This document shows, piece after piece, positions 1 to 12,653 of a stretch of DNA of 14,066 nt. The position numbers and the translations under genes are program-made. The stretch comes from a virus. The stretch is from the UHGV virus genome UHGV-0237147, one strand, 5' to 3'. The stretch's first letter is position 1; each line of letters starts with the position of its first letter. Under the pieces are notes generated by a model that searched no databases, was not told the origin of the DNA, and saw only the letters and a program-made list of their open reading frames with translations.

Positions 1-40
1 CCTGAATGTTGTGCGTACTGACTCTGGTTCATCGTGGTCA

Positions 41-189
41 TGGGACATCACCTGGGACATTTTCTGGGGTGGGACATTCGCCTGGGACATTTTTGCCATG
101 TCCCACCAGAATGTCCCACTGGAATAAACTGGAATAGCCAGAGCTGGCGAGGTGTCCGTAATGATCGCCAGAGGTGGGACATGGGACAC
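41..189. repeat. Array of 8-bp TGGGACAT repeats: direct copies at 41-48, 53-60, 70-77, 83-90, 175-182, a variant TGGGACAC at 182-189, and inverted copies (ATGTCCCA) at 98-105 and 111-118; a longer 13-mer CCTGGGACATTTT occurs twice (51-63, 81-93)
   Basis: Read directly from the sequence; spacing of 12-17 bp between copies; far denser than chance for an 8-mer. Function unknown (candidate protein-binding array). Confidence 0.8.
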
Positions 190-331
190 AAATCTGAAAG
201 TTGTAGCTAGGAAAACACCGCGGCGCGCAATGCCCGTGCCTTACAAAAGTCGCAGGAAGGACCCATTTTTTTAATGGCTTCCGTCATGTGCTACGACTAT
301 GATTACTCCGATTCAATACAAGGAGAATGTA

Positions 332-835
332 ATGGGTAACAATATAATCAAAATGACTCTCGTTGCGGCGGCACTGGTATCACCAATTGCGCATGCTCAG
401 TGGGTCACCAATACTGAAGATGATCTCTTCTCTGGCGGTAAAAAAGCGATGATGCTTGGCGAAGTCTCATCAGCTAATGGCGCTATTGTTTTTGACTGCA
501 CGAAAGATAAACTCAAAGCTGCATACGTTGAGATGGATAAGACGACGGAATTAACCTCAGAACTCCCAATGGACCTTGTAATGAAGGTTGATGGAAATAA
601 CGCGGTTAAACTCGACGCAAATCTTTCAAGAAGAAATGTGCAAAGTATTCAAATTGAGTCTAATGATTCTGACGCACTCAAAACCCTGCTTAAGCAACTG
701 AAAGAAGCAAAATCCAAAGTCTTGGTTGGTGCTCAAACTAAAGATGGTGGGAATCAGCACTCATTTACAGCCAACGTTTCCGGTTCAACCACCGCTGTAA
801 ACAGCTTTGTTAAAGCCTGTGAAATAACTCTGTAA
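332..835 (+). CDS. Secreted (periplasmic/exported) protein of unknown function, 167 aa from ATG 332; moron-like accessory gene
   Basis: Strong RBS AGGAGA at 322-327 about 5 nt before ATG 332 (the upstream in-frame ATG at 299 has no RBS). N-terminus MGNNIIKMTLVAAALVSPIAHA-QW is a classical Sec signal peptide with an AxA cleavage motif; two Cys in the mature part. Opposite strand to neighbours, appears AT-rich, followed by a hairpin terminator. No family recognised. Confidence 0.7.
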   Translation: MGNNIIKMTLVAAALVSPIAHAQWVTNTEDDLFSGGKKAMMLGEVSSANGAIVFDCTKDKLKAAYVEMDKTTELTSELPMDLVMKVDGNNAVKLDANLSRRNVQSIQIESNDSDALKTLLKQLKEAKSKVLVGAQTKDGGNQHSFTANVSGSTTAVNSFVKACEITL

Positions 836-851
836 TTTTGTCTAATCAGTC

Positions 852-880
852 GGGGAAGAGATTCCCCCTTTCATTTTGCT
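852..880 (+). terminator. Rho-independent terminator candidate for the secreted-protein gene
   Basis: Stem GGGGAA (852-857) / TTCCCC (862-867) with loop GAGA, followed by the T-rich tract CTTTCATTTTGCT. Confidence 0.5.
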
Positions 881-1512
881 GTTCTGAGTGCCTCGGATAT
901 CGCCTGATTTAGCGCAGAGGGTAATAATGCGTTTGCCATCGCGTTAGCTCGATCCACATAACCTAGCGTGGGTTGAACCGGAAGCGCATCACCAAACCGA
1001 ATGAGAAGCTTTGGTGCACGCTGTTTTACTCTATCCCTACGCGTGCCATTCGGAGAACGTTTTGCCCTCTTCTTCCCTTTTTTTGTTTTTGCTTTTCTCC
1101 GCTGCCAGACAGCATTAACGCCACCGACATCACCAATAAAGGTATTTGGCTTTGCTTTGAGTTGTGAGAGCTTGTTACGTGGCAGATTGCCGTATTTATT
1201 CAACTTGATATTTTTCGGGTTGAGCAACGCGCTACCACTGAGTTTATGTTCACCACCTGATTCAAAAGGTTCTAAGTACCCGGCGGCGGTATCACGGACA
1301 AAAACCTTTGCGGTTAGGTTGTTCTTTCTTGCCGCCACCGAACCAACTGATTTAACGGTAAACGGCGTGGGGCTCTCCAGGTGTCGTTCGAATGCCGTCT
1401 TCTGAGCCAACTCAATCTGGCGTACAACTTTTGTCATCGCCTGAGCTGTGGCAAACGGGATTTGCTTTTGCAGTTGCTTTAACTGGTTTGATAAATCCTT
1501 CAGTGTTGCCAT
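871..1512 (-). CDS. Hypothetical phage protein with a strongly basic Lys/Arg-rich internal segment (213 aa from ATG 1512; ORF opens with GTG at 1521)
   Basis: Long minus-strand ORF; RBS-like AGGTGA about 5 nt upstream of ATG 1512; segment QRRKAKTKKGKKRAKRSPNGTRRDRVKQRAPK suggests nucleic-acid binding. No family confidently recognised. Confidence 0.6.
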   Translation of the reverse strand: MATLKDLSNQLKQLQKQIPFATAQAMTKVVRQIELAQKTAFERHLESPTPFTVKSVGSVAARKNNLTAKVFVRDTAAGYLEPFESGGEHKLSGSALLNPKNIKLNKYGNLPRNKLSQLKAKPNTFIGDVGGVNAVWQRRKAKTKKGKKRAKRSPNGTRRDRVKQRAPKLLIRFGDALPVQPTLGYVDRANAMANALLPSALNQAISEALRTAK

Positions 1513-1690
1513 ATCAGTCACCTGTATTTACTGCCTATTCTTCAGCATTATCGGTTACAGTTACTGTCTGAATATCAGGATGTTACTTATCGTTGAGTCT
1601 GGGTAAGGTAATGGCTCAGCCCGTCAGCGGTGGGACGTTGGCGTACCAGCCTTGAGAGGAGTGGCTGATTGCCTCTTAATAAGGAGACTT

Positions 1691-9242: not shown

Positions 9243-10558
9243 GCGGCCTCTCCCCGCATATTGCGAACAAGTTCAGAAGCGGCAGTAATGATTTCGCTGG
9301 TGGCCGTTCGTTCCAGCCAGAGTTGATTGATGTTGGCTTTCAGCTTGTTCTGCTGTGAATCATCCAGCATGTCAGCGCCATCCACCTGATCGAATACAAT
9401 TCCAACCTCCAGCGGCCAGATACGGGACTCGGGAAGCGGATCCGCTACTGGTTTAGCTTTCTCACGGATGTGCATGCGGATCTGGCGAATATTGGACCAA
9501 CTGGAAACATCCAGGCTTCCCATAGCTGCAATGAAATCAGTACTGTTCATGCCATATTCACCAGATGCTTCAAGGGCAACAGTCCGAATACGTTCCGACA
9601 TATCCAGGTGCGCAGCAGCGTCATCGAATTCAATCGACAACAGCCACTCATCCACACCGAACAAAATACTCTCACGAATAAGCAGCTTCGCTTTGTCGAT
9701 CGTTAATGGTGATACCTGAGTGAATTCCGGTGCTTCGACAGAATCCGCCGCCCAGGTATGCCCAAACTTCGATTCACTGAATGTGTATTCTTCTTTATCG
9801 CCGAACGCAGCTCTAACGCATGCCCACGCCTCTACACCGCTGACATCAAAAATATCTTTCTGGGTGAGTGGCAACTCTACTTCTGGCTTGTCAGCTACAG
9901 ATGGTGTGGCAGTTGCAGGTTGAGACTTGCTGACAGCAAATTGCGCCAAAGTCATAAACGCCTGCCCTTTTGCCTCCAGTTCTGTACGGTTGATATAGCT
10001 GAACCGCTCACCACGCCATGACTTATCGAATACAGCTATGGCACCGGCAAAAAACGCGCTGGTGGGCTTCTGTTTTTCGTCAGCAGGTACAAACCACACA
10101 GGCAGATCGAACCCAATGCGCCCGCGAATGAATACAATGTGATCGGCATCTTCCGGCCACCACGTTTCACTCGGCGCGGCTTTTATCAGGAATACATAGC
10201 GACCGCCCTTTTCGCGCTGGGCTGCTGCGTACTTCATGATGTGCGTCATACCAGTGATCGCCTGATTCTCGTGGTACTGCGAACGGCTATACGGTGGGTT
10301 GCCATAACCTGCACCACCTAGTTCTGCCAGACGTTCAGACCAATCCTGGGTCAGCGCGTTATCTTCGGCGGTGTACCATGCCGGGCATTTCGCGTTGTCG
10401 TCGTCAGCAAACAAGTCCAGAACTAATGGGCCAAATAACGCGTTGATCCCCCAGAAAAGCAGATCAGGTGTCCTCCACTGATCTCCAACTTCTTTCAATT
10501 CGTGAGCTGGTTTACTGCGCAGTTCAGCCAGCGCCTGGCAATACTTATTTGGCATCAT
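9239..10558 (-). CDS. Phage Dam-family DNA N6-adenine methyltransferase fused to an acidic C-terminal domain of about 240 aa of unknown function (439 aa total)
   Basis: N-terminal roughly 190 aa carry WRTPDLLFWGINALFGPLVLDLFADDDN and the NPPY catalytic motif (GNPPYSRS) typical of phage Dam methyltransferases; the remainder (after a Pro/Ala/Thr linker QPATATPSVADKPEVELPL) is acidic and unrecognised. ATGA overlap with the upstream replication-gene stop. Confidence 0.75.
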   Translation of the reverse strand: MMPNKYCQALAELRSKPAHELKEVGDQWRTPDLLFWGINALFGPLVLDLFADDDNAKCPAWYTAEDNALTQDWSERLAELGGAGYGNPPYSRSQYHENQAITGMTHIMKYAAAQREKGGRYVFLIKAAPSETWWPEDADHIVFIRGRIGFDLPVWFVPADEKQKPTSAFFAGAIAVFDKSWRGERFSYINRTELEAKGQAFMTLAQFAVSKSQPATATPSVADKPEVELPLTQKDIFDVSGVEAWACVRAAFGDKEEYTFSESKFGHTWAADSVEAPEFTQVSPLTIDKAKLLIRESILFGVDEWLLSIEFDDAAAHLDMSERIRTVALEASGEYGMNSTDFIAAMGSLDVSSWSNIRQIRMHIREKAKPVADPLPESRIWPLEVGIVFDQVDGADMLDDSQQNKLKANINQLWLERTATSEIITAASELVRNMRGEAA

Positions 10559-11421
10559 GAGCGGAACCCCGAATTTTCTGGCAGTGAATAGTCAACATTT
10601 TGGAAGTTTGCGCGGCTGGCTGAGTTAGTCGCCCATTTACCGTTAACGCGTTCAGGTCGCCCAGCGGCAGACCATTTGGTCGCGCTTTGCAGGTAACCGG
10701 GGAAGTTTTTTGGAATAAACAGAGTTGCCGGGCGGAGGTATTGAGCCTGCTCGCTATCACGCCAATCAGCGTTTTTGTAATCCACCACAAGGCACAGATC
10801 ATCAACAGTGAACTGTTCCCGCAGACGGGCGCGAATGTTCTCCAGCGACGTGCTGCATACCTGGTAGCGTGAACCAGTTGTCTGGTTCAGGTAAGACAAA
10901 ACCTGTCTGGCCTGATCAGTAATCACAACCTCAGGGTCGGGTTGCGCCGCAACCGGACAAGAGGGTTTTGAAGTTACTTGTGGATCTTGTTTTGATTTTA
11001 CTGACGGATCCCCGCCAGATTCTGACGGGTCAAAACCTCCGTTTTTGCCAGATTTCGACGGGTCAGTTTTTGAGGCGTCAAATTTTGATGCGTCAGATTT
11101 TGACGTGTCAGAATCTGACAGTTGAGAAAATGCGGCAGCCTGAAGTTTCGCCACATTCAGTCGGTACACGTTCGACGCATTACGGTTACCATTACGGCGC
11201 TGTGTACGCGTGAGCCAGCCATCTTTTTCAAGCTTTGCGATTGCCGTTCTGATAGTGCTCGGCCCAGCGCCAAGCTGGCGAGCAATAGTTTCAATAGACG
11301 GCCAGCACACGCCCTCATCGCTGCTGAAATCAGCAAGGCGAGCCATGATCGCGACACTAGACAACTTCATGCCCGACGCCGCGCAACCATCCCATACGTA
11401 GCCGGTTAATTTAGTGCTCAT
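10555..11421 (-). CDS. Replication initiation protein (lambda O-like: N-terminal HTH DNA-binding domain, low-complexity Ser/Lys/Asp linker, conserved phage C-terminal replication domain), 288 aa
   Basis: N-terminal winged-helix-like region (ETIARQLGAGPSTIRTAIAKLEKDGWL); C-terminal region (QARQVLSYLNQTTGSRYQ ... DYKNADWRDSEQAQYLRPATLF) resembles the conserved phage replication C-terminal domain (TIGR02220-like, from memory); iterons lie inside the gene as for lambda ori. Confidence 0.7.
   Translation of the reverse strand: MSTKLTGYVWDGCAASGMKLSSVAIMARLADFSSDEGVCWPSIETIARQLGAGPSTIRTAIAKLEKDGWLTRTQRRNGNRNASNVYRLNVAKLQAAAFSQLSDSDTSKSDASKFDASKTDPSKSGKNGGFDPSESGGDPSVKSKQDPQVTSKPSCPVAAQPDPEVVITDQARQVLSYLNQTTGSRYQVCSTSLENIRARLREQFTVDDLCLVVDYKNADWRDSEQAQYLRPATLFIPKNFPGYLQSATKWSAAGRPERVNGKWATNSASRANFQNVDYSLPENSGFRS
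11002..11111. repeat. Iteron array (candidate origin of replication): imperfect repeats with palindromic cores TGAyGnGTCA at 11023-11032, 11056-11065, 11071-11080, 11087-11096, 11101-11110, and a partial copy at 11002-11011
   Basis: Read directly from the sequence: tgacgggtca, cgacgggtca, tgaggcgtca, tgatgcgtca, tgacgtgtca, each flanked by a short T/A run; located inside the replication gene where they encode the SK[ST]D low-complexity linker. Confidence 0.7.
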
Positions 11422-12552: not shown

Positions 12553-12653
12553 AACGCCTCCTTAGCTAAGTTTGATTAGATATTAATAACCAATCTAACT
12601 TTGGTCAATAAAAACTAAGATTGCTTAGCCTTTTAATTTTTTATGGTGTTCAA
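12553..12653. promoter_or_regulatory. Divergent promoter/operator region between the Cro-like and CI-like genes
   Basis: Perfect palindrome CTTAGCTAAG (12561-12570); inverted repeat CTAAG-attg-CTTAG (12615-12628); inverted repeat TTAGAT (12575-12580) ... ATCTAA (12593-12598); AT-rich 101-bp spacer between divergent start codons. Confidence 0.6.

Follow-up and report, generated by a model that had tools for sequence, protein, structure and literature searches.

The repeat array at positions 41-189 of the UHGV virus genome UHGV-0237147 is very probably the cosB of a lambda-type cos site, on which the small terminase (TerS) of the prophage would dock. The assignment is based on the position, layout and conservation of the array, and on a motif that changes together with the DNA-binding domain of TerS. 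The window, meaning the whole stretch of DNA that was analysed, is 14,066 bp long.

A string search of the window located seven exact copies of the octamer TGGGACAT, five on the plus strand and two on the minus strand, together with one variant copy, TGGGACAC; all of them fall within 41-189, and there are none elsewhere in the window. The initial annotation, which had listed at least five direct, two inverted and one variant octamers within about 150 bp, was thus accurate, as was its report of a 13-mer occurring twice (CCTGGGACATTTT, at 51-63 and 81-93). Successive copies start 12, 17, 13, 15 and 13 bp apart, followed by a 56-bp gap and then a step of 7 bp. The density is far above chance, as had been claimed: in 100 first-order Markov versions of the window, where any 8-mer in any 150-bp stretch was considered, the maximum was usually 2-3 and never exceeded 5, compared with seven observed. 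The related copy TGGGACG proposed at 1631-1637 did not hold up and is regarded as noise, since the octamer at 1631-1638 (TGGGACGT) is one of 8 one-mismatch matches outside the array, while about 10.7 would be expected by chance in the whole window. An Rfam scan yielded a single sub-threshold match to mir-4864 (window 61-127, E 0.26, far under the gathering score), a chance hit to which the inverted octamers give rise.

The minus strand is the direction of late transcription and packaging, and along it the elements listed in Table 1 follow the order cosQ, cosN, IHF-like site, R3-like pair, 56-bp gap, R2-like pair, four R1-like copies and terS ATG; counted from cosN, the orientations of the copies are ++ / -- / ++++. 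Base pairs of the array are counted along the terS-sense strand from a nick of the type mapped in Serratia phage vB_SspM_BZS1 (hereafter BZS1), taken as bp 1. The R3-like pair reads TGTCCCATGTCCCA on this strand and occupies bp 46-59 from the predicted nick (window 188->175); a tandem heptamer pair is found at a fixed distance from cosN in every relative, whichever motif it carries. The R2-like copies are 13 bp apart (window 118->99, terS-sense coordinates), and an inverted pair is present at the same place in relatives with the GGTAACA motif. The R1-like block, reading TGGGACAT on the plus strand and ATGTCCCA on the terS-sense strand, has its direct copies spaced 13, 17 and 12 bp (window 89->41), the last of them overlapping the terS ATG. 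No match to WATCAANNNNTTR with two or fewer mismatches, as would mark an IHF I1 site, was found in 119-174 by a scan that recovers the I1 of lambda. An IHF-like site with 1-2 mismatches at the offset of 191-203 recurs in nearly all subgroups scanned. The repeat, palindrome, degenerate motif copy and GATC of the gap are kept only among close relatives.

Table 1. Features of the cos region and landmark genes of the prophage (window coordinates)
Feature	Sequence	Position	Strand	Remarks
terS 5' end, 13 codons	MTTMNQSQYAQHS	1-41	-	ATG 41-39, preceded by Shine-Dalgarno AGGTGA; ORF runs off the window
R1-like proximal block, four direct copies	TGGGACAT	41-48, 53-60, 70-77, 83-90	+	Exact copies (string search); heptamers invariant, spacers variable
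R2-like block, two inverted copies	TGGGACAT	98-105, 111-118	-	Exact copies (string search); orientation opposite to the other six copies
Gap between R2-like and R3-like blocks		119-174		56 bp
Direct repeat in gap	CTGGAATAA/CTGGAATAG	119-137		
Palindrome in gap	GCCAGAGCTGGC	137-148		
Degenerate motif copy in gap	GGTGTCCG	151-158		
GATC in gap	GATC	163-166		
R3-like tandem abutting pair	TGGGACAT + TGGGACAC	175-189 (175-182 + 182-189)	+	Exact copy (string search) and variant copy
Weak IHF-like site	AATCTGAAAGTTG	191-203	+	Differs from WATCAANNNNTTR at 2 positions; lies between cosN and the distal pair
cosN core	CACGGGCATTGCGCGCCGCG	219-238	-	Identical to BZS1 cos
Predicted 12-nt 5' cohesive end	GCATTGCGCGCC	233->222	-	From BZS1 alignment
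cosQ-like element	GGGTCCTTCC	255-264	-	30-31 nt upstream of predicted nick
O-like replication initiator		10555-11421		PHROG
CI-like repressor		12621-13280	+	PHROG; CII-like activator comes next in order

The window shows a lambdoid prophage in reverse, its genes running from right to left, with gene identities taken from PHROG searches. After the regulators and replication initiator of Table 1, the genes encode, in right-to-left order, a DNA methyltransferase, RusA, Ant, an HNH-like protein and a Q-like antiterminator; next are two holins, an endolysin, an Rz-like spanin and a few small ORFs, after which comes the array. ORF 871-1521 (minus strand) resembles phrog_1924, 'minor tail protein', and is situated outside the structural module, just upstream of cos and terS; p72 of BZS1 lies in the same position, which the BZS1 authors noted as conserved.

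The peptide MTTMNQSQYAQHS is identical to the N-terminus of a 189-aa ORF in E. coli, Kluyvera and Citrobacter relatives. Since this ORF matches phrog_57, terminase small subunit (E 3e-35), the array is directly upstream of terS, where lambda has cosB. The initial annotation had pointed to the place immediately left of the array for a small-terminase gene, and terS was indeed found there. The E. coli prophages match the window either over 1-829 at 85% identity or over 1-265 at 99%. In a 99%-identical E. coli relative the TerS ORF overlaps a 707-aa gene for TerL, outside the window, whose product belongs to the lambda gpA type (Pfam GpA_ATPase, E 3e-64; GpA_nuclease, E 2e-78), and downstream of TerL the relatives encode gpW, portal, S49 protease, decoration protein, major capsid protein and a contractile tail. 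The TerS family is labelled 'hypothetical' in databases.

A search for relatives of TerS, taking one genome per species, provided 42 loci from Enterobacterales, Burkholderiales and other orders, and a pattern scan of viral contigs added 28 further loci with the full signature. A megablast of window 1-900 against the phage collection gave no match; BZS1 and Citrobacter phage phiNP were recovered only by short-word blastn and tblastn. Nearly all terS-aligned loci share a block upstream of the repeats, consisting of GGGTCCTTCC, about 20 variable bases and CACGGGCATTGCGCGCCGCG, followed by a semi-conserved CCAGCTA..AA.TTT..A.TTTG. The cosN core is invariant in the close relatives of the window and nearly invariant in the wider family, and the heptamer GGGTCCT (window 264->258) is nearly invariant in more than 40 relatives; the same heptamer stands at -30 from the nick in the cos of lambda.

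Alignment to the lambda cos gave gapped and ungapped scores no better than shuffled controls, and the cosN call was therefore anchored on BZS1 rather than lambda. The GenBank record of BZS1 opens with an annotated 12-nt cosL equal to GCATTGCGCGCC, and these 5' cohesive ends were obtained by PhageTerm on virion reads, with confirmation from sequenced PCR products that span cos in the prophage (PMC7556043). The last 31 nt and first 60 nt of BZS1 align without gaps to window 264->175, a stretch that covers cosQ, the 12-mer (233->222) and the first repeat pair. The TerL proteins of BZS1 and the E. coli relative are 49% identical overall, with the nuclease half far more alike. As cosQ and cosN are identical to those of BZS1, whose ends were mapped, the cohesive end of the UHGV-0237147 prophage can be predicted from the sequence, with good confidence, to be GCATTGCGCGCC; lambda-type spacing from cosQ would place it one base off, at 234->223. 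Viral contig L055 was considered as a candidate end at the nick and rejected, being merely the end of a stored segment and not a contig end.

Within the array it is the heptamers that are conserved. Among 12 distinct close relatives in the subgroup of the window, 3/56 columns vary in the heptamers versus 42/92 in the spacers (Fisher p = 5e-8). Across relatives the layout is kept while the motif swaps, and each motif is paired with a different TerS recognition helix. The TGTCCCA motif of the window, with helix V[D/N]RKTI.RW.K.G, is shared by loci of E. coli, Kluyvera, Citrobacter, Raoultella, Salmonella, Ewingella, Rahnella and Hafnia; GGTAACA, with helix VSRKT[V/I]T.WK.RG, is found in Edwardsiella, Providencia, Xenorhabdus, Paraburkholderia, Pandoraea and the phages BZS1 and phiNP; GTTCGCA accompanies CSDTLVRRA..QG in Achromobacter and Cupriavidus; GGTTTCA accompanies VSHTAVAKWNKSG at one locus (L029); and CTTGACA accompanies VSRQAVLNWKREG at two Burkholderia loci (L026, L027). 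The sole difference between the first two motifs is in the two central bases, GT-CC-CA versus GT-AA-CA. The prophage group is spread over Enterobacterales and Burkholderiales and occurs in 57 of 5,426 complete E. coli genomes. One locus (L008, NZ_JBQPOM010000071.1), labelled as the Gram-positive Vagococcus sp., has a cos/terS region of enterobacterial type with TerS at 89% identity, and this assembly is probably mislabelled or contaminated.

Spacing between copies ranges from 7 to 17 bp across relatives, and no single rigid geometry fits all of them. In two viral contigs, L153 and L092, the TGTCCCA copies are packed at 7-12-bp spacing at +124 to +200 from the nick, with a perfect palindrome, TGGGACATGTCCCA, within the L153 array and a slightly different TerS recognition helix, VNRKTI[T/S]RW, in both. 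A single specificity class can therefore vary both in its number of copies and in their spacing. An origin of L092 and L153 as R3xR1 deletion derivatives was rejected, because the full array and full terS follow in both.

In the short-leader relatives, of the BZS1 type, terS begins at +75 from the nick, and the ORF itself contains GGTAACA copies at +218 to +310, of which one is inverted and four or five are direct; their translation gives the G-N-K repeats in the linker of TerS. Such in-gene copies are present in BZS1 itself (L167, nt 218-303) and at loci L169, L056, L057, L060, L093, L099 and L158; the predicted TerS sites thus overlap the coding sequence of TerS itself.

Pfam searches with TerS reached no family, Nu1 included, giving at best sub-threshold helix-turn-helix matches, and a place for TerS in the Nu1 family is tentative. 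A 17-member TerS profile, compared with gpNu1 of lambda, aligned residues 4-49 with gpNu1 residues 3-51, which form its DNA-binding domain (hhalign probability 82%, E 1e-5), and the weak sequence matches of TerS in the PDB (E 0.1-0.6) have RppC and lambda-type TerS DNA-binding domains on top. In an AlphaFold2 model (mean pLDDT 71.5, with 74-79 for the N-terminal 40 residues) TerS begins with a strand, helices at 6-13 and 17-25, a beta wing at 32-38 and a helix at 39-51, making up a winged helix-turn-helix, beyond which lie a disordered linker (57-74) and long helices. The best Foldseek matches of this domain in the PDB are Pukovnik Xis, BldC, the gpNu1 DNA-binding domain (1j9i), RacA and the TerS domain 6hn7_B, at probabilities of 0.84-0.99 and E-values of only 0.16-1.1 owing to the small size of the domain. 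As modelled, the N-terminal domain is of the MerR/excisionase type of winged helix. Xis and BldC, its best structural matches, bind successive direct repeats in a cooperative, head-to-tail manner, and by analogy a similar mode would be plausible for reading the four direct copies. These two proteins are regulators or recombination directionality factors and not terminases, so the likeness is one of fold and binding mode rather than of family membership.

In mosaic loci, DNA and protein of the TGTCCCA type of the window (A) are combined with those of the GGTAACA type (B). Edwardsiella locus L016 has A-like DNA next to cosN (76% versus 65%) and an A-like TerS C-terminus (82% versus 76%), while its TerS N-terminus is of the B type (82% versus 51%) and it carries the B motif. 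Loci L011, L013 and L014 are the reverse, with B-like flanks and C-terminus, an A-type N-terminus and the A motif. The motif thus follows the DNA-binding domain of TerS only, and not the flanks or the C-terminus, although the array and the DNA coding for the helix-turn-helix are adjacent, and part of this joint change could reflect linkage rather than selection.

The same mosaics bear on the possibility that a protein other than TerS binds the repeats and aids the terminase indirectly, candidates being a nucleoid protein of the host, another phage factor accessory to packaging, or a redirecting protein encoded by a satellite. The occurrence of the phrog_1924-like ORF just upstream of cos in many phages would fit such a role. 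Against this, the class of motif goes with the N-terminal domain of TerS even where the flanks of a mosaic belong to the opposite type; hosts within a single family have different motif classes, which speaks against a host factor; and the layout parallels the R sites of lambda, which are bound by gpNu1. Such an indirect binder is considered improbable.

An operator cluster for a transcription factor, controlling either the adjacent secreted-protein gene or late read-through into terS, is rated as very unlikely. The secreted-protein gene (332-835, plus strand) has a signal peptide, matches phrog_19473 and is a moron-like insert just outside cosQ. Dense short-repeat arrays are typical of operators, the array is about 140 bp upstream of this divergent gene, and its last copy overlaps the Shine-Dalgarno sequence and ATG of terS. 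However, E. coli prophages without the secreted-protein gene carry the array at 99% identity; their homology ends at window 265, one base outside cosQ, other genes being found there, and the sequence beyond cosQ is unrelated in other relatives too. It follows that the array travels with cos and terS, which are exchanged as a unit without the 332-835 gene, and the regulation of that gene considered in the initial annotation is not upheld. Moreover, a promoter scan of 1-900 found no sigma-70-like promoter, the motif tracks the TerS N-terminal domain, and the equivalent copies inside the terS ORF of BZS1-type relatives would be hard to explain if the array were an operator.

A pac site for headful packaging, for which the multi-box pacL/pacR of SPP1, with several TerS boxes flanking the cut site, would be a precedent, is hardly credible given a TerL of the lambda gpA type instead of the headful type, conserved cosQ and cosN alongside the array, and the fixed 12-nt cohesive ends of BZS1 at an identical sequence. 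The suggestion of the initial annotation that the array past the lysis genes comprises cosB/pac-type small-terminase sites is therefore sustained by the adjoining terS and neighbouring cosQ and cosN, and narrowed to cos. Replication-origin iterons were rejected, as the O-like initiator gene is 10 kb away and the array abuts terS.

Taking the array as cosB, its architecture and the comparative signals allow a working model of TerS binding, stoichiometry, DNA bending and complex geometry to be inferred. Each heptamer (core GTCCCA) would be read by one N-terminal winged-helix domain of an oligomeric TerS. The R3-like pair at bp 46-59 would set the register, placing the gpA-type TerL to nick cosN accurately, and the inverted and direct copies may lend stability to a folded or wrapped complex, which would remain at the left end of the chromosome. 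Packaging would then proceed towards the left of the window by way of terS and terL, with cosQ acting at termination. A more specific and tentative version, which is rather less likely to be correct than not, holds that the eight heptamers form a registry for an oligomeric TerS ring, one domain per subunit at 12-13-bp spacing with the DNA wrapped outside, that GT-CC-CA versus GT-AA-CA is a two-base code read by a few recognition-helix residues, and that in short-leader relatives the array moved into the terS ORF, the sites of TerS encoding its own linker. The ring-wrapping geometry is given only modest weight because of the 7 to 17 bp spacing in relatives and the perfect palindrome in L153.

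By architecture this is a lambda-type cos, and it is neither a new kind of system nor a surprise to specialists. What is most likely new is a cosB built from many heptamer copies, which occurs in several natural specificity classes and has a recognition sequence that had not been described before. The BZS1 paper gives the cohesive end and not the repeats, and the phiNP paper gives neither; when the motif and cohesive-end strings were looked up in the searched library of papers, GGGCATTGCGCGC occurred in none, and the matches to the octamer were unrelated primers. On these grounds, and because the TerS family is 'hypothetical' in databases, the array is rated as a new form of lambda-type cos.

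Recognition of DNA by small terminases is debated, the alternatives being wrapping of DNA round the ring and threading through its central channel (PMC11331095). The present prophage family suits this question, offering a legible site with many short exact copies in a layout like that of lambda cosB. At least five naturally swapped specificities with swapped helices, together with mosaics that isolate the DNA-binding domain, make specificity-swap and structural work straightforward; if the registry reading is true, the family would provide a modular system, made by nature, in which small-terminase recognition of DNA could be settled. The results also annotate cos and the 'hypothetical' terS for a prophage group of Enterobacterales and Burkholderiales, and predict which prophages can or cannot package each other's DNA or that of satellites.

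Compared with known systems, the closest parallel in organisation is the cos of lambda. In complex lambda-type cosB, R2 is opposite in orientation to R3 and R1, and R3 is at about bp 48-60 (PMC4669245); of the cos subsites, cosQ is the one best conserved in lambda-like phages (PMC4669245). At the sequence level the prophage has in common with lambda a cosN with, by BZS1 homology, a 12-nt 5' overhang, the GGGTCCT cosQ about 30 nt from the nick, a cosB layout with the first predicted TerS site at about bp 47-60 and the middle block inverted relative to the outer two, the order of subsites, the place just upstream of terS, and the gpA-family TerL. The modelled N-terminal winged helix-turn-helix of TerS aligns with gpNu1 in the profile comparison described above, and the weak IHF-like site occupies the place of lambda I2. 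The differences concern the R sites and the protein that reads them. Lambda has three R sites of 16 bp, whereas here clusters of 2, 2 and 4 short copies (eight) of an unrelated GTCCCA heptamer are found; TGTCCCA proved unrelated to the R sites of lambda, 21 or N15, in line with the mismatch to lambda already noted in the initial annotation. The R3-R2 gap is longer and lacks a recognisable IHF I1, TerS is too diverged for Pfam Nu1, and the cohesive-end sequence differs. An I1 is not universal in cosB, since the N15-type cosB is also without it.

In phages 21, N15 and Monarch, lambda-like phages that vary in packaging specificity (Feiss et al. 2015, PMC4669245), as in the present family, the R-site sequence changes in step with the recognition helix of TerS against a conserved cosQ and cosN, and long (complex) and short (simple) cosB coexist in one family. 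The R3 of N15, at bp 48-59, matches the R3-like pair at bp 46-59, and its accessory site rR2 is inside terS, like the copies within terS of BZS1-type relatives. The lineage described here differs in having a myovirus tail, another cohesive end, at least five motif classes, and in-gene sites that are arrays of five or six copies also encoding the TerS linker. The nearest phages, BZS1 and phiNP, carry GGTAACA instead of TGTCCCA and have most copies inside terS, which starts from +75, and yet they share with the prophage an identical cosQ and cosN core, a related TerS N-terminus, a tandem heptamer pair at equal distance from the nick, and a TerL whose nuclease half is nearly identical (49% for the whole protein).
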